A stretch of DNA of 64,000 nucleotides from a virus (taxonomy: Duplodnaviria > Heunggongvirae > Uroviricota > Caudoviricetes): the IMG/VR virus record IMGVR_UViG_2718218133_000001; one strand, given 5' to 3'. Under the pieces are notes generated by a model that was not told the origin of the DNA, did not search any database, and saw nothing but the letters and a program-made list of their open reading frames with translations. Positions 18,998-63,200 of the stretch are shown here, in pieces. Within the stretch, counting starts at the first letter, position 1. The number at the start of each line of letters is the position of its first letter. The translations under genes and the position numbers were made by a program.

Positions 18998-20191
18998 GTG
19001 ACCTGGGACGATCACAAGAAGAATTTTGCTCGCCTGGCGCGAGATGGTGGTTACACCATCGCACAGTATGCCGCCGAGTTTAATCTTAACCCTAATACCG
19101 CACGTCGTTATCTCCGTGCCTTCAAAGAAGACACCAGGACAGCGGACAGCCGCAAGCCAAATAAGCCAGTCAGGAAGCCTCTAAAAAGCATGATCATTGA
19201 TCACGCTAATGATCAACGTGCAGGTGATCACATTGTGGCTGAAATGGCTGAAAAACAAAGAGTTAATGCTGTTGTCAGTGCCGCAGTCGAGAACGCTAAG
19301 CGCCAAAATAAGCGCATAAATGATCGTTCTGATGATCATGACGTGATCACCCGCGCCCACCGTACCTTACGTGATCGCCTGGAACGCGACACCCTGGATG
19401 ATGATGGTGAACGCTTTGAATTCGAAGCTGGCGATTACCTGATAGATAACGTTGAAGCGCGGAAGGCCGCGCGCGCTATGTTGCGTCGGTCCGGGGCCGA
19501 TGTTCTGGAAACCACTCTTCTGGAAAAGTCTCTTTCTCATCTCCTTATGCTGGAGAACGCCAGGGATACGTGTATTCGCCTGGTGCAGGAAATGCGCGAT
19601 CAGCAAAAAGACGATGATGAAGGTACTCCGCCTGAATACCGTATCGCGAGCATGCTAAACAGCTGTTCCGCGCAGATAAGCAGCCTGATCAATACCATTT
19701 ACAGCATCCGGAATAACTATCGAAAAGAAAGCCGGGAGGCGGAAAAGCACGCTTTATCTATGGGGCAAGCTGGCATTGTTAAGCTGGCATACGAACGAAA
19801 GCGTGAAAATAACTGGTCAGTGCTGGAAGCGGCTGAATTCATCGAGGCGCATGGAGGAAAAGTGCCTCCCCTGATGCTGGAGCAAATCAAAGCCGATCTG
19901 CGTGCTCCTAAGACCAATACCGATGATGAGGAAAACCAAACAGCATCTGGCGCTCCATCACTTGAAGATCTGGATAAAATCGCGCGAGAACGGGCCGCCA
20001 GCCGCCGCGCTGATGCCGCATTGTGGATTGAGCATCGTAGAGAAGAAATTGCCGATATCGTCGATACAGGTGGTTATGGTGATGTCGATGCGGAAGGCAT
20101 ATCAAACGAAGCATGGCTTGAACAGGATCTGGACGAAGACGAGGAGGAAGACGAAGAAGTTACCCGCAAACTGTACGGGGATGATGATTAA
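18998..20191 (+). CDS. pacA: terminase small subunit PacA
   Basis: 397 aa; the GATC-hexamer pac cluster lies inside its 5' part; acidic C-terminus; GTG start. Confidence 0.8.
19191..19349 (+). other. pac packaging site (clustered TGATCA/G hexamers)
   Basis: Four hexamers at 19191-19230 and three at 19321-19349, the 4+3 arrangement of the P1 pac site. Confidence 0.8.
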
Positions 20192-21675
20192 TGGCCAGAA
20201 GTTGCGTAACGGACCCACGTTGGCGCGAGCTGGTGGCGCTATATCGTTATGACTGGATTGCGGCCGCTGATGTGTTGTTTGGGAAGACACCAACCTGGCA
20301 GCAGGATGAGATCATTGAGTCCACGCAGCAGGACGGCAGTTGGACAAGTGTGACCTCCGGCCATGGTACTGGTAAATCGGATATGACGAGTATCATTGCA
20401 ATACTCTTCATCATGTTTTTCCCCGGCGCTCGCGTCATTCTGGTCGCTAACAAAAGACAGCAAGTCCTTGATGGTATTTTCAAATACATAAAGAGCAATT
20501 GGGCTACTGCTGTTAGCAGATTCCCGTGGTTGTCGAAGTATTTCATTCTTACAGAAACGTCTTTTTTTGAGGTGACTGGCAAGGGTGTTTGGACAATATT
20601 GATAAAGTCCTGTCGCCCCGGGAATGAGGAGGCGTTGGCTGGTGAACACGCCGATCATCTCTTGTATATCATCGACGAAGCGTCGGGTGTGAGTGATAAA
20701 GCATTCAGTGTGATAACAGGTGCGCTGACCGGTAAGGATAACCGTATTCTGCTTCTTTCCCAGCCTACGCGACCTTCAGGCTATTTCTACGATTCACACC
20801 ACAGACTAGCTATTCGCCCGGGAAATCCTGATGGATTGTTTACTGCGATAATACTGAATAGTGAAGAATCTCCGCTTGTAGATGCAAAATTTATACGAGC
20901 AAAACTTGCGGAGTATGGCGGTCGTGATAACCCCATGTACATGATCAAAGTACGTGGTGAATTTCCCAAATCTCAAGATGGCTTTCTTCTTGGTCGTGAT
21001 GAGGTTGAGCGGGCGACGCGGCGAAAGGTCAAGATTGCCAAAGGATGGGGCTGGGTTGCATGTGTTGACGTTGCTGGTGGCACAGGACGAGATAAGTCCG
21101 TTATTAATATCATGATGGTGTCCGGCCAGCGAAATAAACGCCGTGTAATCAACTATCGTATGCTGGAATACACAGACGTTACAGAAACGCAGTTAGCCGC
21201 CAAGATTTTCGCAGAATGTAACCCAGAACGGTTCCCGAACATAACCATAGCTATTGATGGCGATGGCTTGGGGAAATCGACGGCTGATCTAATGTACGAA
21301 CGCTATGGCATTACCGTCCAGCGTATCCGCTGGGGTAAAAAGATGCACAGCCGTGAAGATAAAAGCCTTTATTTCGATATGCGCGCTTTCGCGAATATTC
21401 AGGCGGCAGAAGCTGTAAAATCAGGGCGTATGAGGCTTGATAAGGGGGCTGCGACTATAGAGGAAGCATCAAAGATACCGGTAGGGATAAATTCCGCAGG
21501 TCAATGGAAGGTGATGTCAAAGGAAGATATGAAGAAAAAACTCAACCTGCACTCACCGGACCATTGGGATACATATTGTTTCGCTATGTTGGCGAACTAT
21601 GTTCCCCAGGATGAAGTGCTTAGCGTCGAAGACGAAGCGCAGGTTGATGAAGCTCTGGCATGGCTTAATGAATAA
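20191..21675 (+). CDS. pacB: terminase large subunit PacB
   Basis: 494 aa; Walker-A-like [12 protein letters not shown] motif; ATG overlaps the pacA stop. Confidence 0.85.
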
Positions 21676-50324: not shown

Positions 50325-50510
50325 ATGCTAATAGGCTATGTACGCATATAGACAAATGAACAAAACACAGCTATGCAGTGAAAAGCACTTGAAAGCGCAG
50401 GATGTGAGCTAATTTTTGCGAATAAGGCGAGCAGCAAAAAGGCTGGGCACCCTGGGTTAAAAAAGGTTCTGCGTATGCTTTCCAGAGGTGATACCCTAGT
50501 CTCGGGCTAG
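50325..50510 (+). pseudogene. degenerate 5' remnant of a cin/gin-type serine invertase gene
   Basis: Translation MLIGYVRI*TNEQNTAMQ*KALESAGCELIFANKASSKKAGHPGLKKVLRMLSRGDTLV matches the N-terminus of Cin/Gin invertases but has in-frame TAG (codon 9, where the catalytic Ser is expected) and TGA (codon 19), then diverges. Confidence 0.6.
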
Positions 50511-50632: not shown

Positions 50633-51205
50633 TTACAGCTCAGATTGAGTTTGGCGCTTCTCTACAGGATGATAACGATAAATCGTCGATACACCGATAT
50701 CGTAAATAATTGCCAACTGTTTCCTGCTGTAGCCATTTTCGATCAACCTCGCTATTTGCTCATGTTGTTCTTTTGTCAACTTCGGGCGACGTCCGCCAAT
50801 GCGTCCCTGTTCGCGTGCAGCTGCCAGTCCGGCCAGTGTTCTCTCAACAATTAATTCACGTTCCATTTCTGCTAAAGCCCCCATGACGTGAAAAAAGAAA
50901 CGCCCCATGGGTGTTGATGTGTCAATACTGTCTGTCAGACTACGGAAATTAACACCTTTTTCCCGCAACTCCTCTATAAGCGTGATAAGGTGTTTCATAC
51001 TTCTGCCAAGCCTATCCAGCTTCCAGACAACCAGCGTATCTCCTTCTGATAACGTTCTGAGCAGCTTTTTCAAGCCTGGTCTGGCTGACTTTGTTCCGCT
51101 TATTTTATCTTCAAAAATCAGTTCACATCCTGCGCAGTTCAGTGCATTTCTTTGTAAATCTGTGTTTTGGTCATTTGTTGACACACGAATGTAGCCAATT
51201 TGCAT
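50633..51205 (-). CDS. cin: Cin/Min-family serine DNA invertase
   Basis: From the ATG at 51203-51205: MQIGYIRVSTNDQNTDLQRNAL..; resolvase catalytic domain plus C-terminal HTH; adjacent to the first crossover site. Confidence 0.9.
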   Translation of the reverse strand: MQIGYIRVSTNDQNTDLQRNALNCAGCELIFEDKISGTKSARPGLKKLLRTLSEGDTLVVWKLDRLGRSMKHLITLIEELREKGVNFRSLTDSIDTSTPMGRFFFHVMGALAEMERELIVERTLAGLAAAREQGRIGGRRPKLTKEQHEQIARLIENGYSRKQLAIIYDIGVSTIYRYHPVEKRQTQSEL

Positions 51206-51259: not shown

Positions 51260-51285
51260 AAGACTAAAACGTTGGTTTGGGGGAA
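51260..51285 (+). repeat. invertase crossover site 1 (hix/gix-like)
   Basis: ..aaaacg-TT-ggtttgggggaa; resembles the hix core AAAACC-AA-GGTTTTT; conserved half-site GGTTTGGGGGAA. Confidence 0.55.
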
Positions 51286-51752
51286 GGCTCTGCATTGCCT
51301 GTTGGTGTACCTGTTCCATGGCCCTCAGCCACACCACCAACGGGGTGGCTAAAATGTAACGGAGCAGCATTTTCTTCTGAAAAGTACCCAAATCTGGCAA
51401 AGGTTTACCCAACGTTAAAATTACCTGATTTACGCGGTGAGTTTATCCGTGGTTGGGATGATGGGCGCGGGGTGGATGCGGGACGTGCTTTATTGAGCAT
51501 TCAGACAGGAATGCTGGAAAAGCACCGACATATTGTTGTAGCCAATGATGGTTACGACACAAAAGATGAATGGGAGCTGGCGACAATTTTCAAAAAAACA
51601 TACACACAAGGACGGGGCTTGATGCCTCAAATACAGGAGGGAATTTGATTCCATCACCGACACTTCATTCTCGAGGGAGTATTGGTAATACTGGCGGGAG
51701 TGAAACCCGTCCACGAAATATCGCATTTAATTACATCGTAAGGGCGGCATAA
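51277..51752 (+). pseudogene. tail-fibre variable cassette 1 (frameshifted)
   Basis: Conserved N-terminal module GEGSALPVGVPVPWPSATPPTGWLKCNGAAFSSE.. in frame 1 (track ORF 51277..51648); conserved C-terminal ETRPRNIAFNYIVRAA only in another frame (track ORF 51570..51752). Confidence 0.45.
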
Positions 51753-51771
51753 AAACGTTGGTTTGGGGGAA
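51746..51771 (+). repeat. invertase crossover site 2
   Basis: Same core aaaacg-TT-ggtttgggggaa. Confidence 0.55.
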
Positions 51772-52260
51772 GGCTCTGCATTGCCTGTTGGCGTACCTGT
51801 TCCGTGGCCATCAGCCACACCTCCAACGGGGTGGCTGAAATGCAATGGTGCAGCATTTTCTTCTGAAAAGTACCCAAATCTGGCAAAGGCTTATCCCACC
51901 AATAAATTACCGGATTTACGGGGAGAATTTATTCGTGGCTGGGATGATGGGCGTGGCATTGATCCTAGACGTGCCTTGCTAAGTCTTCAGAATGGAGGAG
52001 TGGAATCACACACCCACCAAGGGCAGCTCTTCAGAGTTAGTGATTATCGTACAAATGAAATACCAGCATCAGAAGTTATGGGAAGAAACTATCTTGCAAG
52101 CCTGACGCCGGGTGCTAATAGCCCACTTGATTTTGATGATTATCCTGTAGCTCTTATTCCAAATGGATATTTTGTCGGGAATCAGAGAACAACAGCATAT
52201 GGGATAAATGAAACCCGTCCACGGAATATTGCATTTAATTACATCGTAAGGGCGGCATAA
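51763..52260 (+). CDS. tail-fibre variable cassette 2 (promoterless 3' gene segment)
   Basis: Starts in-frame inside the crossover site with no ATG; conserved N- and C-terminal modules, unique middle. Confidence 0.6.
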   Translation: MGEGSALPVGVPVPWPSATPPTGWLKCNGAAFSSEKYPNLAKAYPTNKLPDLRGEFIRGWDDGRGIDPRRALLSLQNGGVESHTHQGQLFRVSDYRTNEIPASEVMGRNYLASLTPGANSPLDFDDYPVALIPNGYFVGNQRTTAYGINETRPRNIAFNYIVRAA

Positions 52261-52279
52261 AAACGTTGGTTTGGGGGAA
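52254..52279 (+). repeat. invertase crossover site 3
   Basis: Same core. Confidence 0.55.
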
Positions 52280-52699
52280 GGCTCTGCACTGCCTGTTGGT
52301 GTGCCCGTTCCGTGGCCCTTAGAAACACCACCAACGGGCTGGCTAAAATGTAACGGAGCAGCATTTTCTTCTGAAATGTATCCCAAACTGGCAAAAGCCT
52401 ACCCCACCAATAAATTACCGGATTTACGCGGTGAATTTATCCGTGGCTGGGATGATGGGCGCGGGATTGATGCGGGACGTACCCTGCTTTCAGGGCAGGA
52501 TGGTACAAGTTTTTCTCATTACGGAGGTAATTTCGACATTGGGTCTGGTCATTCAATCAATAACTATGACCAAATTGTTTCTAACCAACCAGGATTTTCC
52601 CGTTTTTCATTTGCAGGGCCTTCACGAGGTGATGGGGTTAATTATGTAACCATTCGTCCTCGTAACATTGCGTTTAATTATATCGTAAGGGCGGCATGA
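52271..52699 (+). CDS. tail-fibre variable cassette 3
   Basis: As cassette 2; different central segment. Confidence 0.6.
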   Translation: MGEGSALPVGVPVPWPLETPPTGWLKCNGAAFSSEMYPKLAKAYPTNKLPDLRGEFIRGWDDGRGIDAGRTLLSGQDGTSFSHYGGNFDIGSGHSINNYDQIVSNQPGFSRFSFAGPSRGDGVNYVTIRPRNIAFNYIVRAA

Positions 52700-52718
52700 A
52701 AACGTTGGTTTGGGAGAA
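52693..52718 (+). repeat. invertase crossover site 4 (variant half-site GGTTTGGGAGAA)
   Basis: Same core with one substitution. Confidence 0.5.
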
Positions 52719-53207
52719 GGCTCTGCATTACCTGTTGGTGTCCCTGTTCCGTGGCCTTCAGCCACTCCGCCAACAGGCTGGCTGAAATGCAACGGTGCGG
52801 CTTTTTCTGCTGAAGAATACCCGGAACTGGCAAAGGCTTACCCGACAAATAAATTGCCTGATTTACGTGGTGAGTTCATTCGTGGCTGGGATGACGGGCG
52901 CGGGATTGATCCAGGTCGCTCTATTTTAAGCGAGCAAGGATATGCAACGGAGGATCATGCTCACGGATTACCGTCAAAATCAACCGTAGCAACTGACAGC
53001 TCAATTAATTTCTACTTTGACGAGGCATGGGCTACTAGTGGTAATACGGGAGTTATCAGATGGGGGAACACAAGCGATGCAGGATTGCCAGCCCCTAATT
53101 ATGGAACTTTTAAAACATATAAACAGTCCGTAGCTAATTTAGGTACTGCTGGCTTAGAAACCCGCCCTCGTAATATTGCATTTAATTATATTGTGAGGGC
53201 GGATTAA
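52710..53207 (+). CDS. tail-fibre variable cassette 4
   Basis: As cassette 2; different central segment. Confidence 0.6.
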   Translation: MGEGSALPVGVPVPWPSATPPTGWLKCNGAAFSAEEYPELAKAYPTNKLPDLRGEFIRGWDDGRGIDPGRSILSEQGYATEDHAHGLPSKSTVATDSSINFYFDEAWATSGNTGVIRWGNTSDAGLPAPNYGTFKTYKQSVANLGTAGLETRPRNIAFNYIVRAD

Positions 53208-53212
53208 TTATA

Positions 53213-53824
53213 TCAACTGGCTGTAGAAAGTTGTTTTTCAGGCCAGTTGAGATCTGGTGCCGTGGTTAAATCCATCGCGTTCAGCTCGTCTATATAATCT
53301 AGCACGGAGTTAAGCTGCGTGGTTTCTGCCTGCGTCAACTTCCGTCCAGCCCGTAATTTCAACTGAATCAGACTAATGGAATCCATCGCAGTATCAATCA
53401 ATGACTGACGTTTTGTTTCTGCTGCCTCTACAGCTGCACTATGTTGAGCCTCAGTATCAACCACCCATTTCTCTCCATCCCATTTGTCGTATGGTGTTAG
53501 CGGGGCGATAGTGGTTGTATTTTCCGGATAGTCACCCAACACCGTGATTTCTTCGGGATTCCCTGTGTCAATGCTATAGACAGTTTCGCCACGATGATCT
53601 GGCACATACTCCCATGAACTTAAATCCTCTGAACGGAGAATCGCATAACCTGCTTTATGTGAGCCTGGAGCATCCAAACAAGAATGTGCCGGAATACCAA
53701 CGCCAACAGCAAGATATTCAGTTGATGCAGAAATATATTCCCGATTACCACCATCATAGTTATAAACGATAATGTTTCCTGCCTGTATGGCTATAAGTTC
53801 GCTATTTAATATCGCATTATCCAT
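53213..53824 (-). CDS. U: tail fibre assembly protein (U-like)
   Basis: 203-aa ORF whose ATG overlaps the cassette 5 stop (TAATG coupling); Tfa-like composition. Confidence 0.7.
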   Translation of the reverse strand: MDNAILNSELIAIQAGNIIVYNYDGGNREYISASTEYLAVGVGIPAHSCLDAPGSHKAGYAILRSEDLSSWEYVPDHRGETVYSIDTGNPEEITVLGDYPENTTTIAPLTPYDKWDGEKWVVDTEAQHSAAVEAAETKRQSLIDTAMDSISLIQLKLRAGRKLTQAETTQLNSVLDYIDELNAMDLTTAPDLNWPEKQLSTAS

Positions 53825-54282
53825 TATGCTGCTCTCACAATATAATTGAAGGCAATGTTACGTGGGCGGGTTTCATTCCCCCCAGATAACTCCGTTCTGT
53901 ATTGACTGGTAAATTTACCATTAATCGCTCCTTCTTGGACGGCGTTATCTGTCGACAACAGGCTATCCCCCCCTCTGTCATTTGGCACCAATACCGTGTT
54001 ATCCCACGCGTCCCATGACCGAATATTATGATAATGACTTCCTGTTAACCACCCCTGTATGCTTAAGATGACCCTTCCCGCATCCACACCTCGCCCATCA
54101 TCCCAACCACGGATAAACTCACCGCGTAAATCAGGTAATTTTAACGTTGGGTAAACCTTTGCCAGATTTGGGTACTTTTCAGAAGAAAATGCTGCGCCAT
54201 TGCATTTCAGCCACCCCGTTGGAGGTGTGGCTGATGGCCACGGAACGGGCACGCCAACGGGCAGTGCAGAGCCTTCCCCCAA
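53824..54282 (-). CDS. tail-fibre variable cassette 5 (minus orientation, coupled to U)
   Basis: Same conserved N- and C-terminal modules on the minus strand, starting inside crossover site 5. Confidence 0.6.
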   Translation of the reverse strand: MGEGSALPVGVPVPWPSATPPTGWLKCNGAAFSSEKYPNLAKVYPTLKLPDLRGEFIRGWDDGRGVDAGRVILSIQGWLTGSHYHNIRSWDAWDNTVLVPNDRGGDSLLSTDNAVQEGAINGKFTSQYRTELSGGNETRPRNIAFNYIVRAA

Positions 54283-54299
54283 ACCAACGTTTTATGCCG
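54274..54299 (-). repeat. invertase crossover site 5 (inverted orientation)
   Basis: Reverse complement of the core: ttcccccaaacc-AA-cgtttt. Confidence 0.55.
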
Positions 54300-54717
54300 C
54301 CCTTACGATGTAATTAAATGCAATGTTACGAGGACGATGGTTACATATTACGACCATCAATCGTGAATGTCCAGTATAATGAAAAACTCAATAATTCCGT
54401 CTTAGGCTGTAGATAATACTTGTCATAGTTATGATTGAATGACCAGACTCAATGTCGAAATTACCTCCGTAAAGAAAACAATATGTCTGATCCTGCCATT
54501 CTGAATAGCAGTACGTCCAGATCAATCCCCGCCCATCATCCCAGCCGCGATAAATTCACCCGTAAATCCGGTAATTTATTGTGGGTAGCCTTTGCCAGTT
54601 TGGGATACTTTCAGAAGAAAATGCTGCACCGTTGCATTTCAGCCACCCCGTTGGAGGTGTGGCTGATGGCCACGGAACGGGCACGCCAACAGGCAGTGCA
54701 GAGCCTTCCCCCAAACC
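54300..54717 (-). pseudogene. degenerate variable cassette currently joined to the S constant region
   Basis: Paralogue of cassette 3 with multiple single-base deletions; reading frame from the constant part stops at 54556 after ..AAFSSE-SIPNWQRLPTINYRIYG. Confidence 0.55.
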
Positions 54718-57135
54718 AAGGTAATTAAGAACGCTCTGAATACTGGGCTTACTAAGAATTGCACGTCCAACACTTGTCAGTGCAGTTAACGCGGCACGAT
54801 CAACCCCTGTGAAATAAGGGAGTTTATCTGCTGCGGTAGCTAGTGCCGCTAGAGCAGTGAGCGTAGCGTCTGCCGCTTGCTTTCCATTAGCCAAATCATA
54901 TGCAGCCTTGACAGCTTTCGGTGTAGCGGCCAGCACTTCAGACGTGCTGTTAGTGGCACTACTGAGCTGAGTGATGCCTTTCGCTGTCAATGAAGCTGTT
55001 GGCACACCAGTAATCTGATTCCAGGGATGTGTATGACTGGATGGTGCTTTTTCGGCTGCTAGATCGTATGCAGCTTTAACCGCTTTTGGCGTTGCAGCTA
55101 ATGTTTCAGAAGTGCTGTTGGTGTCGCTACTGAGCTGAACTATCCCTTTTTGTGTCGTGGTTGCATCCTGGGCTGTATACTTCCCGTTAGCCAGGTCATA
55201 TGCAGCCTTGACAGCTTTCGGTGTGGCGGCCAGCACTTCAGACGTGCTGTTAGTGGCACTACTGAGCTGAGTGATGCCTTTCGCTGTCAATGAAGCTGTT
55301 GGCACACCAGTGATCTGATTCCAGGGATGTGTATGACTGGATGGTGCCTTTCCGGCTGCTAGATCGTATGCAGCTTTAACCGCTTTTGGCGTTGCAGCTA
55401 ATGTTTCAGAAGTGCTGTTGGTGTCGCTACTGAGCTGAACTATCCCTTTTTGTGTCGTGGTTGCATCCTGGGCTGTATACTTCCCGTTAGCCAGGTCATA
55501 TGCAGCCTTGACAGCTTTCGGTGTGGCGGCCAGCACTTCAGACGTGCTGTTAGTGGCACTACTGAGCTGAGTGATGCCTTTCGCTGTCAATGAAGCTGTT
55601 GGCACACCAGTGATCTGATTCCAGGGATGTGTATGACTGGATGGTGCCTTTCCGGCTGCTAGATCGTATGCAGCTTTAACTGCTTTTGGCGTTGCAGCTA
55701 ATGTTTCAGAAGTGCTGTTGGTGTCGCTACTGAGCTGAACTATCCCTTTTTGTGTCGTGGTTGCATCCTGGGCTGTATACTTCCCGTTAGCCAGGTCATA
55801 TGCAGCCTTGACAGCTTTCGGTGTGGCGGCCAGCACTTCAGACGTGCTGTTAGTGGCACTACTGAGCTGAGTGATGCCTTTCGCTGTCAATGAAGCTGTT
55901 GGCACACCAGTGATCTGATTCCAGGGATGTGTATGACTGGATGGTGCCTTTCCGGCTGCTAGATCGTATGCAGCTTTAACCGCTTTTGGCGTTGCAGCTA
56001 ATGTTTCAGAAGTGCTGTTGGTGTCGCTACTGAGCTGAACTATCCCTTTTTGTGTCGTGGTTGCATCCTGGGCTGTATACTTCCCGTTAGCCAGGTCATA
56101 TGCAGCCTTGACAGCTTTCGGTGTGGCGGCCAGCACTTCAGACGTGCTGTTAGTGGCACTACTGAGCTGAGTGATGCCTTTCGCTGTCAATGAAGCTGTT
56201 GGCACACCAGTGATCTGATTCCAGGGATGTGTATGACTGGATGGTGCCTTTCCGGCTGCTAGATCGTATGCAGCTTTAACCGCTTTTGGCGTTGCAGCTA
56301 ATGTTTCAGAAGTGCTGTTGGTGTCGCTACTGAGCTGAACTATCCCTTTTTGTGTCGTGGTTGCATCCTGGGCCGTATACTTCCCGTTAGCCAGGTCATA
56401 TGCAGCCTTGACAGCTTTCGGTGTGGCGGCCAGCACTTCGGACGTGCTGTTAGTAGCACTGCTGAGCTGAACTAATCCCTTTTGCGTTGTGCTTGCATCC
56501 TGCGCCGTATACTTGCTTTTCGCCAGATCGTAGGCTTTTTTAACTGCCAGCGAACTTGCAGCGACATCACTTCTGGTACTGGTTACAGAGTCGGAAATTT
56601 CAATGCCTATCGTGAGATCGATGCGGTCGGATACATCTATCATTTCCTGAGTAATAGCAGATACGCCAGCAGGGATATTCACCGTACAAACAAGCAGTTC
56701 CCCATCTCCTAACTGATATGAATCGGTATAGGTTCTGGCAACAAATTCAGCTGCATGAATATGTGACGCGGTATTCACCTGATAGGTATCTTCTCCAAGA
56801 AGGTATCTTCCCTTCAGCACAATTGCATATTTCTTGCCTGCGTTAAGTGCAAGAGAGATATCCTTACGATGCTGAATAGTTACCTGGTAGAATTCACCAA
56901 TATCCACTGACGCCGCGCCAGCGGTTTTATCTCCATCCACTGAGGTGATTAACAGGTTCATCCCACCGCCAGGCTTAGGCAAGAAACCAGCATAAAATCC
57001 CGGGTCAACAATTCCCCTGAATTTTCGGTTTAGAGCGGCTGACAGATATGGTTCGTGGTATTGCACATCAGCCACCAGAGCCAACGACTCGGGTGATGGG
57101 TAAGTAACCGATGTAACAACTGTAACGTCATTCAT
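54556..57135 (-). CDS. S: tail fibre protein S, constant part plus fused degenerate cassette
   Basis: Likely start MNDVTVVTSV (the track ORF extends to 57222); about five 100-aa repeats with HTHPWNQITGVP motifs; ends in the crossover-site-encoded LGEGSALPVG. Confidence 0.8.
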   Translation of the reverse strand: MNDVTVVTSVTYPSPESLALVADVQYHEPYLSAALNRKFRGIVDPGFYAGFLPKPGGGMNLLITSVDGDKTAGAASVDIGEFYQVTIQHRKDISLALNAGKKYAIVLKGRYLLGEDTYQVNTASHIHAAEFVARTYTDSYQLGDGELLVCTVNIPAGVSAITQEMIDVSDRIDLTIGIEISDSVTSTRSDVAASSLAVKKAYDLAKSKYTAQDASTTQKGLVQLSSATNSTSEVLAATPKAVKAAYDLANGKYTAQDATTTQKGIVQLSSDTNSTSETLAATPKAVKAAYDLAAGKAPSSHTHPWNQITGVPTASLTAKGITQLSSATNSTSEVLAATPKAVKAAYDLANGKYTAQDATTTQKGIVQLSSDTNSTSETLAATPKAVKAAYDLAAGKAPSSHTHPWNQITGVPTASLTAKGITQLSSATNSTSEVLAATPKAVKAAYDLANGKYTAQDATTTQKGIVQLSSDTNSTSETLAATPKAVKAAYDLAAGKAPSSHTHPWNQITGVPTASLTAKGITQLSSATNSTSEVLAATPKAVKAAYDLANGKYTAQDATTTQKGIVQLSSDTNSTSETLAATPKAVKAAYDLAAGKAPSSHTHPWNQITGVPTASLTAKGITQLSSATNSTSEVLAATPKAVKAAYDLANGKYTAQDATTTQKGIVQLSSDTNSTSETLAATPKAVKAAYDLAAEKAPSSHTHPWNQITGVPTASLTAKGITQLSSATNSTSEVLAATPKAVKAAYDLANGKQAADATLTALAALATAADKLPYFTGVDRAALTALTSVGRAILSKPSIQSVLNYLGLGEGSALPVGVPVPWPSATPPTGWLKCNGAAFSSESIPNWQRLPTINYRIYG
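54706..54731 (-). repeat. invertase crossover site 6 at the 3' end of the S constant region
   Basis: ttcccccaaacc-AA-ggtaatta; left half-site differs from the cassette sites. Confidence 0.55.
54880..56470. repeat. tandem array of about 5.3 x 300-bp near-identical coding repeats inside S
   Basis: The 60-bp lines at 55201, 55501, 55801 and 56101 are identical or differ by a single base (the 55501 line has an extra T-to-C); the 54901 copy is slightly diverged. Confidence 0.85.
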
Positions 57136-57146
57136 CAAGCATATCC

Positions 57147-57581
57147 TTATGCTGTAGTCGAGTTTATGGCCATAACTGCGGTATATGTTTTGCCCACATA
57201 CAGCGAGTCTTCCTGGACACAAATAATGGCGATTGGCTTATTCTCGTTATCCAGAACAACCAGAGTGTTGAATGGGTAGTTTTTCCCTTCCTGCAACTGA
57301 CTTTGATCAAGGTCCATTCGGACAGTAATTATCCCGCCTGAGTAGGTTGGGACGAGGTTGATGGTGCAAAATTGACTGGTCAGTTCTGCCAGATCGAAAG
57401 CCTTTGGCAGTTCTCCAATCTCATAAGTGCCATCTCCTTTCTTAGTAACCAGTGAACTGGTACCGAAAACGGCCTTGCTGATTAAAAATCGAGAGCCTTT
57501 GTTAATGGACGATTCAGCGCGCCGCTGATAGTAATAGTCCAACAACTGACTCTTATAGAGGTTTGTTGAGACGTCAGACAT
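57147..57581 (-). CDS. tail-fibre-region protein (P1 R position)
   Basis: 144-aa ORF immediately upstream of S. Confidence 0.45.
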   Translation of the reverse strand: MSDVSTNLYKSQLLDYYYQRRAESSINKGSRFLISKAVFGTSSLVTKKGDGTYEIGELPKAFDLAELTSQFCTINLVPTYSGGIITVRMDLDQSQLQEGKNYPFNTLVVLDNENKPIAIICVQEDSLYVGKTYTAVMAINSTTA

Positions 57582-57631
57582 GATTTTCCCTAATCAATGT
57601 TGTGAAGCCTCATTGTAAGATAAGTAACTTG

Positions 57632-57656
57632 TCACCCCGCCCTGCGGACGGGGTGA
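57632..57656 (-). terminator. GC-rich hairpin (weak terminator-like)
   Basis: caccccgcc-ctgcg-gacggggtg; no strong U-run. Confidence 0.3.
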
Positions 57657-57659
57657 TTG

Positions 57660-58379
57660 TCACGCATCGCTATCCAACAGCAAATCATCTGCGCGGGTGC
57701 GATCAAACGTAGGCGTTGCTTTCACAATAGTGCCACCAGGCGTTGCGGTGATCGGGGCGCTAATCGACGTAACTCCAGTAAGCGAAGTTGTATCCGAAGT
57801 TTCAAACCAGCAGAATGCTTTTTCGGTATCAGAAATCTCGTTCAAAGTGATCATGTCGGCCTGTTCATTTACAACAACCGACAAATAGAGCGTAAGCCCA
57901 TCAAACACTATATGCAGTGGCAGTAGAGGCTTTACGAACTGATTAAACTTTCTGAGAATTTCTTCTGTAATTGCGGACTGATCTATCGTTCCAGTAATAC
58001 CCATTGTCCGGGCCAGGTCGTTTATGGGAATACTGATCATTCCTCTGGAAGTCAGAAACATCTCGCCGAATGTGCCGCCGGTGGTTTCCAGTGTGCTTTC
58101 TGGAATCAGGACCGTACCATAGGGATGACGTTCAAAGTCCACCGGAGCATATATGGGATCCCATAAAACCGATATACCGTTAAATTCGCGATAAATTGTC
58201 TGGTTTATAGGGCGTTCAGTGCCCTTAAAATGGATCTCATCAAACCGCTGTTGTAGCAACATCGGAACGGAAGATGAATTCGACGTTCTGATAGTAAAAA
58301 ACTGGCCAAGTTCATTTGTCCTGGTCTCCAGATCCTCCTTGCTCATGGAGAAAATAGACTTCCGGTTGGTAGTCAACAA
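57660..58379 (-). CDS. baseplate-region structural protein (P1 gene 16 position)
   Basis: 239-aa ORF in the tail/baseplate block. Confidence 0.4.
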   Translation of the reverse strand: MLTTNRKSIFSMSKEDLETRTNELGQFFTIRTSNSSSVPMLLQQRFDEIHFKGTERPINQTIYREFNGISVLWDPIYAPVDFERHPYGTVLIPESTLETTGGTFGEMFLTSRGMISIPINDLARTMGITGTIDQSAITEEILRKFNQFVKPLLPLHIVFDGLTLYLSVVVNEQADMITLNEISDTEKAFCWFETSDTTSLTGVTSISAPITATPGGTIVKATPTFDRTRADDLLLDSDA

Positions 58380-58478
58380 AGGTGTCCATCATTGACTGAA
58401 CCAAATCAGCCAATGATTTATAAAGTAATGACTTTTGCTTAGCTGATGTAAGCCGGTTATTAAACCAGGAACGCTGCA

Positions 58479-59912
58479 TCACTCCTCCTCATACGAAATA
58501 TTAAAGGTGGAGTTTTCTGTATCCAGATAAACGAAATCGTAAAAGCCGTTGGACTCATTCCACTCGACAAATTCCAGATAAAAGTCGCGGAAATAGCCCA
58601 GCGTTTCGATAAACGCCCAAACGTCTTTTTTCTTAATCAGGATGTACTTTCCGACGCGGTTCGGATCAAAGAAAGTTGAGTCGCGCCCAAATTTTGTTTC
58701 CAGTGCCGACTTCAGCTCATCGGTCACGTTCTCAATGGTCAGGCTTGCCGATATTCGCCCGGTGATGGTGATCTTAAAGGGTAGTTTTCTGACCTCTTTA
58801 TACGAAAATTTCTTGTTCAACTCATTCGGCACCTTCTTAAAAGCGGCCAGGATCATTTCCTCAAGCTCTGACTGACTTTTATTCGGATGCCATCCTGAAA
58901 TAAATATCTTATTGATATTCCGAACATTATAAGCACCATCTAATTTCTCTTGCTGGCCTTCGCCCCATGCCTTTACCCAGGACAGTCCCGGGATGTTACG
59001 CACCAGAAAATACGTATAGTCCCCGCCCCATACGACCTGATCATCATAGGCAAGGTAATATTGTGCACGATTACGTGTGATCTCCGTTGTTTCGGCATCG
59101 GTACCTGCGGTTATGGGTGTCGTTGTCTTAACTGAAATCAAATTAGCTAAATTAGCCGCAGAATCGACAGGCGTCAGATTTTGGCCAGCAACCAAGGTTA
59201 TATCTCCGTTGGTGCACCATACCTTAAGTGTAATGGTCGAGCCTTCTGGCGGTATTTGCCCAATTAGCCCATCACCGAATCGAACCCCCAACTGCTCGGA
59301 TGGTTTATAAAACTCAACGTAGACCTGGCTTTTACTACCGGCTAACCGGAACATAGTGCTGGAAGACCACTGCGTGGTCTTACCATCGGTCGTCACGAAT
59401 ACTTCCAGCTTATAGCAGACAGCAGTGAGAGCCTTTGATAACACGACTTCCAGAAATTCTTTGGCTGCCGTAACGGTATATGTCACCTCCTGGATTTCCA
59501 ACTGTGCCACTTCTACCGTACCGGTGCCGTCAACCAACCTGCATACATCCATAGTCATGTAAGGGTACTGGTCGTCAGATATTAAAGGCATATTTTTGGG
59601 GATTACCGCTGGGGCATCTTCACTTGTGGCGGTGATCTCAATCATCCCCGATGACGGTGTTGGCTTGGTACCAACGTAACTATTCGTTTCTGCCGCTGCC
59701 AGGATAGAGGAACGCCGCGTCGCGGTCGATATAAAGCCTTCAGCCAGCGCCGCATCGGCATACTGAAAGCACCTGTAGACAATCTGGGTAATAAACAATG
59801 TCAGCATCGAGACAAATTGAGAGCCGACAAACTTCGACCAGAATGAATCTTTCTCGACAAGCTCTTCAAACTCTGCACGAATACTGTCTTTAGTCGGTGT
59901 TGTTTTACTCAT
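58479..59912 (-). CDS. baseplate protein (BplA/gpJ-like)
   Basis: 477-aa ORF upstream of the gp25-like gene. Confidence 0.45.
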   Translation of the reverse strand: MSKTTPTKDSIRAEFEELVEKDSFWSKFVGSQFVSMLTLFITQIVYRCFQYADAALAEGFISTATRRSSILAAAETNSYVGTKPTPSSGMIEITATSEDAPAVIPKNMPLISDDQYPYMTMDVCRLVDGTGTVEVAQLEIQEVTYTVTAAKEFLEVVLSKALTAVCYKLEVFVTTDGKTTQWSSSTMFRLAGSKSQVYVEFYKPSEQLGVRFGDGLIGQIPPEGSTITLKVWCTNGDITLVAGQNLTPVDSAANLANLISVKTTTPITAGTDAETTEITRNRAQYYLAYDDQVVWGGDYTYFLVRNIPGLSWVKAWGEGQQEKLDGAYNVRNINKIFISGWHPNKSQSELEEMILAAFKKVPNELNKKFSYKEVRKLPFKITITGRISASLTIENVTDELKSALETKFGRDSTFFDPNRVGKYILIKKKDVWAFIETLGYFRDFYLEFVEWNESNGFYDFVYLDTENSTFNISYEEE

Positions 59913-60268
59913 AGCACCACGTCCTGTGTGATAGTTATATCCCTGATACGAATGGATATTTTCAACTTATCAAAAGCATCTCCCTCGGCTACTGACAAGC
60001 CAGAAATCGGTATGTCAGGTAAATCTACCGTCAGTTTTTGCAACAGCATTGCCTCAACCGCAATTTGAACATGCGACAAGTTGGTCGGTTCGTGTTTAAA
60101 CTGCGGTAAAACATTGCCCCATGACGGATCTCCGTATACCTCACCCTGATAAGTGTTTAGCCACTCATATAAACGAGCGCCCCAGGCCTCCTCCTGGGAC
60201 TCATACGTTTTTACGCCGGATAACTCCAGCGTCAGCAAAGGATCAATTTCGTTATTGTTGGCCATCAA
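59909..60268 (-). CDS. baseplate wedge protein (GPW/gp25-like)
   Basis: 119-aa ORF overlapping the sit stop. Confidence 0.45.
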   Translation of the reverse strand: MMANNNEIDPLLTLELSGVKTYESQEEAWGARLYEWLNTYQGEVYGDPSWGNVLPQFKHEPTNLSHVQIAVEAMLLQKLTVDLPDIPISGLSVAEGDAFDKLKISIRIRDITITQDVVL

Positions 60269-63200
60269 TCAACTCTCGCGTAGTCATTCATCAACGGATC
60301 ATCAATTGACAGTGGTACCGTGCGCATAACGCCCGGCTGAGGCGTGCTGACCTTTACGACAGTTCCCTGGCCTTTCGCCGAGTCTTTGGTGTGCTCTTCA
60401 ATCCTGGCAAGCAATGAGGTCATCTGCGCAAACAGCCGCTTCGTTTCACCATCAAGTGAAACGGTATTATCAGCCAACTGCATTGTCGGCTTGGCACCGG
60501 AACCGCCAAGGTCACTAATAACCTGCCCGTCTATCTGCATACGACCGGTTGGTTGCTGCAAATCGTTGGCGACAGTCGTCATCTGGGACGTGGAAGCTGG
60601 TTGAGGAGAATTATTTGAGCGCATTCCCCGGGCATTAATGAGTTTGTCATACAGTCCATCAATCCCCATTTGTGCGCCGAGCTGGTCAAAGTAACTTGAG
60701 TTGTTGGCCACCGGACGTGCCTCTTCAACTGGCATAGGTGTATCAACATACACATTGCCAGCTGCCGTTGCGGTTCCCCTTCCTCGTGCACGTTCTTCGA
60801 GGGTTCCCTGGACGACTTCCCGACGCATCCCCCGGCCATTCATGAATTTGTTGACCAGATCGTTAACGCCAACAGCATTGCCGATTTTGTCTACCAGACC
60901 GCCTTTCTCAAACGGGCTATCACCAGGGGTAAACGCCAGACCAGTAGACTGATCGATAACAGCGTTATCAGGCAGTGGTCCCCTCACTCCATATTGCGCC
61001 CCACCCTGTGCTCCTGCCCCAGGTGTATAGATTTCACCACCTAAATAGCGAGCACGATGAGTATTGACCTTGATCGCGTACTCACGGTTTTCTTTCGATA
61101 AGTCACCTGTGCCTTTTTTCCACTTATTGATAGTGCCAAACCCTGCGTTATATGCAGTGATGGCCTCGTTTAAGTCTCCATTGGCTTGCTTCAGATACTT
61201 GCTCATGAGAAGAGCCGCAGCTTCTGCCGATTTCACAGGATCAAATGCATCCTGTTCCGATATCCCTGTCTCTTTACGAGCAATACTCGTGAACTGGAAC
61301 ATCCCGAGTGCGCCACCACTTAACTTTCCATCTGGTGATCTTGTAAGCGGAGACTTTGCGTTAGGATCCCCTCCTGATTCAGTTGCAGCAATCGCGTAAA
61401 GAGTGCCTTCTGGAAGACCATATTTATTCTCTAGTTCAGCAAAATATGGAGCCAACTTATCGAGATTTGCCTTACCTTCAGCGCCAAGACTTCCTACTTT
61501 TACATCCAAGTTGCCATTGTTGTAGGTATCCGCAGCTTTCTGAATATCATTCCTGGTTCCAGTAGTATTACGCGACGATGATGACGAGCTATTTTGACCA
61601 ATAGCTTTATCAATTTTCTGCAACGCGCTATTGCCCGTTTCTACAGCATTTGCATTGATTATCTGATTGGCAGTTTCTTTAACTGTTTTATTGCTATCTT
61701 TCGCCGTATCTAGAGATGCATTTACAACACGAGTGACAATATTAGCCTTTTTAGAGGTATATTCAGTCTTAGGAGCATTGTCCTCCTGACGTTCTTTAGC
61801 AGGTGTTTTTAATTCAGGTGTAACCTCTTTCGCATCCGCTTTATTGACTAGCTTTGATGCAACCCAGGCCACTGGGGTGCTCTGAACAGCGGCATCTGCA
61901 ACCTCACCTGAAAGCTCTTTTGCGGCACTCCATAGATTACTGCCAGCTTCTTTAATGTATTTCCCTGGGTTCTTAATGAAATCAATTGCACTATCAATTG
62001 CATCACTGAAAACCTTTTTCAGGTTATCGACAGTAAAGAAGTCTTTGATGGCGTCTAATTTTTCGTTCAGACTCTTGGTTGTGTCACTGAACCAGGCTGA
62101 AATAGCATCGCCAATCTTGGCTGTGTAATCGTTGAATGTTGTGGATATGGTGTCACCAAGGTTAGAAATATATGTTTCTAAATTGGTAATCCCACTATCA
62201 ATGGCCTGGGCAATACTTTCCGTCGAAAATGATTGCAACATATTGCCGATATCCTCAAATCCAAGTGATTTGAGAACGCCACCAATGGCATTGCTAATAC
62301 CAGATACCAGTCCTCCCATATCGAGAACGTTAGCCAGTGTATAAGCCGCTTTTTGCTGAAAAGATGGATCTTCCCCATCCTTAAGCCCAAAGGTCCGACG
62401 TTGTGCTTCTGTATCATTCCAACCGGTTACCGCATCATAGATACCTCCAGCCACCGTGCCGACTAGCGGAATTGCGCGTAAAGCCCCCTTTGCAAAAGCC
62501 TTAACACCTAGTTTCTCCAATCCCTTAGTTGCAAGTTTTCCGGCACCGCGAGTAGCCAATTCGCCAGCTTCTTTGGCAGCAGCTTTTTTCCCACCAAAGC
62601 CCAATAAGCTTGCAACTTTTTTTATACCTAAAGCGCCTAGTGCCATCGAGCCAACTTTCTTTAGTGCCCCACGGCCAAAAATAAGGGAAGCAATACCACC
62701 GGCCCCCTTCCCTAACAGGCTAAATAATTTGGACAGCAAGCCGCCCTTCTTTTTCCCGGTGTTTTTGGCTATCTGATCAAGGGCGCTGAGAATCTTGTCA
62801 TTGCCCTCTTTAATTTCGCTGGTCTGATCCTGAAGTTCCTGAACCGTCCGTTTTTGGGTGTTAACCTGAACGACATCGGCACTATTTTGCGATTTACGCC
62901 TAAAAAAACCTTTTCTACGGCTGTTATCGTCATTGCCACGAATCACATCGGCAATAGACTTTCTGGCGCCATTAAGCGATCCACCAACTTCTTTTGATAT
63001 CCCGCCAAGCTCCTTCCCTGCTGCCCACAATGGACCAGCAACGGCATAACCTAACGCATCGACGGCACGAGTCTCTGAAGGGTTACCTATGCCTTCAGCT
63101 ACTTTTGACAGTTTTTTTAATAAACCTGATTCAGCATTTAGACGCTCATCATCCTCTTTGCGCCTGGCCTTTTCAGCACGTTCAGCACGGGCATCTTCCG

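Follow-up and report, generated by a model that had tools for sequence, protein, structure and literature searches.

A frameshifted tail-fibre cassette in a Min-type multiple DNA inversion region of an Escherichia coli P1-like phage-plasmid is probably an artefact of the assembled record

The closest described relative of the locus analysed here is the Min system of p15B from E. coli 15T-. Work of Sandmeier, Iida and Arber from 1990-1992 reportedly found six mix sites in 3.5 kb and a repeat-rich constant part in Min. In work of the same period by Sandmeier et al., p15B is also said to carry a Pin-like min gene and a truncated psi-win. According to a 1991 abstract, all six fusions are reported to be open frames of 739-762 aa. 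Six-site inversion of tail-fibre genes of the Min type was already known in 1990 and is widespread among P1-like plasmids of E. coli; invertase and fibre genes of the Min/p15B type are reported from other P1-like plasmids as well (PMC6906374).

Judged by its sequence, the window (the whole stretch of 64,000 nucleotides that was analysed) is an E. coli P1-like phage-plasmid, and its region at 50.3-57.1 kb is a p15B Min-type multiple DNA inversion tail-fibre system. DNA comparison identified hundreds of IncY-type plasmids that are 97-99% identical to positions 57000-62000, and the 98-99% identical relative NZ_CP023961.1 is colinear with most of the window. Like p15B, which is also a P1-related phage-plasmid of the IncY type, the region combines a Pin-like serine invertase with six crossover sites, a repeat-rich constant 5' part of S with alternative short 3' cassettes, and a truncated cin-like pseudo-invertase beside the invertase gene. 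The original prediction had grasped the structure of this known six-site region but had not named the system. The locus is the known Min-type inversion switch regardless of whether the degenerate cassette that concerns us below is real or an artefact.

The truncated cin-like pseudogene (50325-50501, plus strand) adjoins the invertase gene and spans 59 codons with two in-frame stops. In a tblastn comparison of the invertase with the window it showed 63% identity to invertase residues 4-62 (E=1e-19), and we take this remnant to be the analogue of psi-win, which lies beside min in the p15B described by Sandmeier et al. in 1991. The invertase itself (50633-51205, minus strand; 190 aa) is a serine DNA invertase of the Min/Pin type with Pfam domains Resolvase and HTH_7 (E=2e-51). 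Exactly the same protein is found on at least 1000 contigs, where it is named DNA-invertase or Pin-like. Searching for the crossover motif TTCCCCCAAACCAASGTWWTT returned six matches, all copies of the site TTCCCCCAAACCAASGT.., compared with 0 expected. Four of them are on the minus strand, namely site 1 at the 5' end of cassette 1 (51265-51285), site 2 (51751-51771), site 3 (52259-52279) and site 4 (52698-52718), and two are on the plus strand, namely site 5 (54274-54294), which is oriented as the site at the S junction, and site 0 (54706-54726), which marks that junction between the constant part of S and the cassettes. All six sites lie within about 3.5 kb (51265-54726), and each lies in-frame at the LGLGEGS codons with which a cassette starts.

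Six cassettes with a Collar domain are thus delimited, every one of which opens with a conserved block of 210 nt that encodes this phage tail domain. Four of them are intact: cassette 2 (51763-52260, plus strand; 165 aa, Collar domain), cassette 3 (52271-52699, plus strand; 142 aa) and cassette 5 (53824-54282, minus strand; 152 aa) were delineated from the list of open reading frames together with Pfam, and cassette 4 (52710-53207, plus strand; 165 aa) from the list of open reading frames. The exact product of cassette 3 was retrieved from about 997 contigs by protein look-up. Cassette 1 (51277-51752, plus strand) is frameshifted and split into separate open reading frames, and the sixth copy is a degenerate, cassette-3-like segment (54296-54717, minus strand) delineated by alignments and statistics, so that as assembled two of the six fusions do not have an open frame. 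A conserved motif, RPRNIAFNYIVRA, ends cassettes 2-5 and, in its shifted frame, cassette 1 as well. The region has a single gene for a tail-fibre assembly protein, U (53213-53824, minus strand; Pfam Caudo_TAP), which serves as the one U for six cassettes and is linked to cassette 5. An organization as in the two-site C-segment of P1, where cix sites flank Sv-U and Sv'-U', was considered and dismissed in view of the six sites and the single U. The constant part of S (54718-57135, minus strand), assigned from the list of open reading frames and the sequence, contains 12 Phage_fiber_2 repeats according to Pfam. Within it, TRF detected 5.3 copies of a 300-bp tandem repeat (54880-56470; 98% matches, 0% indels), an array whose copy number varies among related plasmids.

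In such a region a Hin-family serine invertase would recombine six sites of the 26-bp class inside the tail-fibre reading frame. Because the sites lie within this frame, the constant 5' part of S would be joined, one at a time, to the six short C-terminal cassettes with a Collar domain, and host range would be set in this way. Any culture would then contain the inversion region as a mixture of isomers. The slot beside the constant part of S would be the most heterogeneous one since inversion is possible between its site and any of the four sites in opposite orientation.

It is in this slot that the degenerate segment is found. As had been proposed, the S frame crosses the site TTCCCCCAAACCAAGGTAATT (54706-54726) and continues in a segment that, among its paralogues, is closest to cassette 3 (52271-52699). 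The junction reads ...GWLKCNGAAFSSE followed by SIPNWQRLPTINYRIYG, and translation ends 17 codons past AAFSSE at a stop codon at 54556-54558. With the true ATG at 57135, the S open reading frame as assembled (54556-57135, minus strand) encodes a truncated product of 859 aa. The loss of the C-terminal module noted in the original prediction was borne out by Pfam, which places the end of the S Collar domain at profile position 27 of 57. An intact cassette 5 (53824-54282) together with U (53213-53824) indeed lies on the same strand behind a site of the same orientation (54274-54294), and therefore its expression with S would take two inversions in succession. For this arrangement two alternatives had been put forward, a consensus across a mixed population and an isomer that makes a truncated fibre. 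We favour the former over the latter on the grounds of an indel-dominated spectrum that consists of deletions, the confinement of these deletions, the uniqueness of the segment in databases and a documented artefact in the assembly AR_0372. Our preferred reading, to which we assign a probability of roughly two in three, is that the degenerate cassette is an assembly or consensus artefact of mixed inversion isomers and does not represent a real truncated fibre.

Damage to the segment is more extensive than originally thought. Single-base deletions relative to cassette 3 are present as predicted, but the estimate of about seven was too low: the segment differs from cassette 3 by 23 indel events and 41 mismatches, it has at least 13 frameshifts as assembled, and the alignment of the flanked span comprises 396 matches, 47 mismatches and 33 gap columns. 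The conserved block (54513-54714) has eight one-base deletions and no insertion, with all deletions located past column 105, and contains a single base that is absent from all of cassettes 1-5. Reading off the alignments, we counted five further one-base deletions where the variable and 3' regions align well, and all 13 of the 13 unambiguously aligned indels are one-base deletions. The ratio of substitutions to indels is about 1.8:1 overall and 1:8 for the unique changes in the conserved block. Transitions and transversions occur at 17:24 over the whole segment, and mismatches in its variable part show no codon-position bias. This part differs from cassette 3 by 20%, with strongly divergent patches at about 54514-54473 and 54422-54350 and an almost identical stretch (54472-54423) between them. 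The damaged remainder of the conserved block contrasts with the 105 columns nearest to the site, which are clean. They represent a haplotype of their own, which no fixed weighting of cassettes 1-5 yields, and they differ from cassette 5 at only three polymorphic columns.

These features bear on the possibility that the segment is a real, old and dead silent cassette, i.e., a decayed paralogue of cassette 3 that hitch-hikes in the inversion region. A phage in the isomer shown would then make a truncated S protein without a receptor-binding tip. We regard this reading as unlikely, yet it has to be taken seriously. Selection on silent cassettes is only intermittent, and the clean, distinct first 105 columns as well as the patchy divergence with converted ends fit gene conversion. 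Neutral decay in E. coli yields about 10 substitutions per indel, as judged from mutation-accumulation studies, and eight deletions would thus be expected to be accompanied by dozens of substitutions. Eight deletions next to one unique substitution, with 13 of 13 unambiguous indels being deletions, do not fit such decay. For a pseudogene one would expect substitutions to outnumber indels several-fold and the cassette to be common to related elements, and neither was observed.

Two further explanations that assume a real segment are that it serves as a maintained null position by which the tail fibre is brought into a programmed OFF state, or that it was targeted by hypermutation of the diversity-generating retroelement (DGR) type. 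Nothing specific speaks for them apart from the fact that only one slot is non-coding. Mutagenesis of the DGR type was rejected because mismatches relative to cassette 3 are not adenine-specific, and we know of no DGR reverse transcriptase in P1-like genomes. The null position is contradicted by the fact that the cassette is conserved in no relative searched. The probability of these two explanations taken together is in our view close to negligible. We consider it very improbable that a genuine degenerate cassette is maintained as a null position of the shufflon; if this were so, a fraction of lysogens would yield particles with truncated fibres or no fibres, which would amount to a programmed OFF state of host recognition.

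The deletions are sharply confined. In comparison with NZ_CP023961.1, 29 gap positions are packed into about 320 bp (54293-54608), whereas the rest of the 64 kb is almost free of indels and includes stretches of 9.5 and 9.3 kb with 0 gaps. The neighbouring 300-bp repeats, of which there are 5.3 near-identical copies, show 0% indels among copies. The few other unpaired indels relative to NZ_CP023961.1 are intergenic, with the exception of a 17-bp deletion at 58371. Within an otherwise colinear 11-kb alignment to the same plasmid, positions 19944-20904 contain paired, compensating one-base indels; this cluster looks like a locally divergent gene segment and not like a series of errors.

Placement of the deletions was examined with respect to the differences among cassettes. 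With favourable tie-breaking, each of the eight deletions of the conserved block can be assigned to a column at which the cassettes differ, a result that was equalled by one of 1500 random deletion sets under the same tie-breaking (P=0.0007-0.005 across nulls; P=0.002-0.005 with stricter nulls confined to homopolymer positions and/or to columns 100-205). Seven of the eight can also be shifted off polymorphic columns, which makes the corresponding minimum-placement test uninformative. In the variable part there are 28 mismatching bases, 13 of which are found in another cassette at the aligned column compared with 9.3 expected (P=0.10), and the idea that these mismatches were borrowed from other cassettes was rejected for lack of significance. 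The segment also shares a co-linear 10-mer with cassette 2 and an 11-mer with cassette 1, which may reflect mere family homology. Mosaicism of the conserved block was likewise discarded as a sign of read mixing. Intact cassettes of relatives are just as mosaic in this block, with 2-12 switches and 0-9 unique bases, and since mosaicism is normal there it is not evidence of an artefact.

The degenerate segment appears to be unique to this record. When the DNA collections PLSDB and INPHARED and 5,426 complete E. coli genomes were searched, its best match was the intact cassette-3 type (85-88% overall, 78.5% in the variable part), which is itself near-identical in more than 80 plasmids. Four segment-specific 24-37-mers had 0 matches in IMG/VR, GTDB genomes and JGI metagenomes, whereas the homologous 24-mer of cassette 3, used as positive control, matched 17 viral contigs; GGATTTACGGGTGAATTTATCGCGG is an example of a k-mer that spans a deletion of the degenerate cassette. 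No open reading frame of the degenerate region was found among 15 billion proteins, a search that covered the frames of this region apart from truncated S itself. A real, novel allele of the cassette-3 type hidden beneath the deletions was considered too and rejected, as the frame-repaired protein matched only products of the cassette-3 type with 62-64% identity; no protein with the divergent patches was found by this search. Heavy decay implies age, and an old cassette should be common to relatives, where it was not found. The lack of anything alike in plasmid, phage, E. coli, viral, metagenome and protein collections therefore argues against a decayed silent cassette.

Related elements show what the region looks like when it is intact. 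In NZ_CP023961.1 cassettes 1-5 all recur, their conserved blocks being 100% identical, alongside three additional ones, and it is an intact cassette 3 that is joined to S there; other relatives hold the same cassettes in other orders and orientations. Among 88 conserved blocks from 20 related loci, indels are restricted to pNORD58_2 and three distant copies of 74% identity. The region of pNORD58_2 (NZ_CP139843.1, 1210-4217) contains about 13 cassettes, several of them unannotated; in the one that starts at 2606, the site and conserved block are affected by two deletions of 7 bp and 3 bp. Such cassettes may have died naturally or may point to additional problems of assembly. Common ancestry with the window segment was ruled out since a different cassette with different lesions is affected. 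The existence of a cassette with different and larger deletions in a relative nevertheless counts against an artefact in the window, and its 7-bp deletion is in line with a dead cassette.

The layout of pB20105_2 is informative for the slot as such. There, the constant part of S is followed by a cassette X, cassette 5 and U, and then by four inverted cassettes, which shows that a sixth slot is natural. This real six-slot layout is compatible with a dead cassette at the corresponding position of the window. By the same token it speaks against a variant of the artefact reading in which the whole slot is spurious, so that there would really be five sites and the constant part of S would be fused to cassette 5 and U. 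In that variant, reads from an isomer with S joined to cassette 3 would have been connected to the major isomer via the conserved blocks, leaving behind a ghost of cassette 3 that could not be polished. The resulting order of S, cassette 5 and U would equal the canonical layout of P1, and cassette 3 is otherwise present twice. The small number of differences between the first 105 columns and cassette 5 (three polymorphic columns) fits polishing with the major isomer, and inverted ghost duplicates of S and cassette 3 exist in AR_0372. Six-site layouts, however, are reportedly the norm in p15B, and it is hard to reconcile with a mere ghost that the variable part diverges from cassette 3 by 20% and has patches attributable to none of the cassettes. 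We therefore hold a wholly spurious slot to be rather improbable.

An independent precedent for corruption of such a cassette is provided by the public assembly of E. coli strain AR_0372 (GCF_002968735.1; NZ_CP027133.1 and NZ_CP027129.1). Its main plasmid record holds an inverted, frameshifted duplicate of S and cassette 3. Moreover, a c1-type cassette that is degenerate in the main plasmid record is intact on a 5.2-kb satellite contig. Over 490 nt the degenerate version differs from the intact one by 40 deleted bases, 0 inserted bases and 4 mismatches, and its conserved block has 10 deletions, 0 insertions and 1 mismatch. The intact copy in the same assembly proves that the degenerate cassette of AR_0372 is an artefact. 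The window segment resembles it in belonging to the same cassette family and in the deletion-only corruption of the conserved block, and four of the eight window deletions coincide with AR_0372 deletions within one column (P ~0.05). That the same signature is demonstrably artefactual in AR_0372 weakens the case for real decay in the window. The two differ in that the AR_0372 cassette has an intact twin and few mismatches, whereas the window segment has many mismatches and no intact twin.

AR_0372 does not stand alone. Four E. coli assemblies labelled 'complete' include satellite contigs of 2-5 kb that consist of cassettes, U and invertase only. Artefacts of the inversion region were noted in NZ_CP027133.1 (1-2950), NZ_CP027129.1, NZ_JBQJRT010000008.1 and NZ_CP142924.1, with NZ_JBQJRS010000014.1 also belonging to these records; one is an inverted, frameshifted ghost of S and cassettes at the end of a plasmid record, and the others are satellite 'plasmids'. 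It has been described that PacBio HGAP misassembles shufflons through isomer heterogeneity and that polishing fails there (PMC5430464).

Taking into account the architecture, error spectrum, confinement and uniqueness of the segment as well as the independent precedent, we infer a cause at the level of reads. The sequence at 54296-54717 is most likely faithful to no molecule. On a base of the cassette-3 type, long reads that were mixed or gave poor support may have been merged into a consensus, or two isomers may have been joined into a chimera. Reads with different cassettes would have been piled onto one backbone, which would result in deletions at polymorphic columns; the consensus caller would have dropped single bases preferentially where cassettes differ and would have left noisy patches in the variable part. 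The truncated S protein would then be an artefact of the record and not a product of the phage.

Several observations do not sit easily with this artefact. The clean first 105 columns with their own haplotype are not obtained from a simple mixture of cassettes 1-5, and simple mixing fails to explain the mismatches of the variable part (P=0.10). The AR_0372 artefact is almost free of mismatches, whereas the window segment is rich in them. Furthermore, the other five slots are clean though they are heterogeneous too.

Two lesions elsewhere in the virion genes likewise have to be weighed. Near 58371, 17 bp of NZ_CP023961.1 (ATTCGCTCCAACCATGG) are absent from the window, and over the stretch concerned (58326-58416) the best 15 plasmid matches are also 17 bp longer. 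The loss splits a 278-aa gene upstream of R into open reading frames 57660-58379 and 58312-58482 (minus strand). We presume this gene to be a counterpart of gene 16 of P1, with a role in the baseplate or tail. With a real deletion at this place, the prophage might be incapable of forming particles. The second lesion is the frameshift in cassette 1, where one G is lost near 51617, leaving a run of four G compared with five in the intact homologue of FDAARGOS_448 (NZ_CP023961.1). The product of the cassette 1 open reading frame in its window version was not found among 15 billion proteins. Contraction of this G run may be genuine or may stem from a homopolymer error, and the frameshifts in cassette 1 and in the cassette joined to S may both be errors of the record. 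The private 17-bp deletion and the one-base frameshift make real decay of the module conceivable, and as inactivating lesions in virion genes they speak for a dead cassette; on the other hand, they are the only two in the rest of about 30 kb of virion genes.

If the degenerate cassette were real, it would merely be another dead silent cassette in a known system, and as such it is of little consequence for biology. Its significance lies in the caution that it calls for, namely that public long-read assemblies contain invertible multi-cassette regions that were wrongly polished or wrongly joined. Mis-assembly of this kind generates fake frameshifted tail-fibre genes and satellite mini-contigs, and calls of host range or of defective prophages that are based on such records can be wrong.

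Among known systems, the Cin/C-segment of P1, the Gin/G-segment of Mu and Pin of e14 share with the window the family of their invertases and the principle that the C-terminus of the fibre, and with it host range, changes when DNA is inverted at sites that lie within the S frame. They have two sites and two Sv/U pairs, whereas the window has six sites, six cassettes and one U. With the shufflon of R64 and other IncI plasmids the window has in common that multi-site inversion of C-terminal cassettes leads to a mixed population within a clone, and PacBio-only assemblies of these shufflons have misassembled or replaced segments owing to this heterogeneity (PMC5430464). The shufflon differs in that it depends on the tyrosine recombinase Rci and acts on the pilus adhesin PilV instead of a phage fibre. 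Compared with Min of p15B, in which all six fusions are reportedly open, the window has two of six cassettes frameshifted as assembled, and its constant part of S is longer, with 5.3 copies of the 300-bp repeat.
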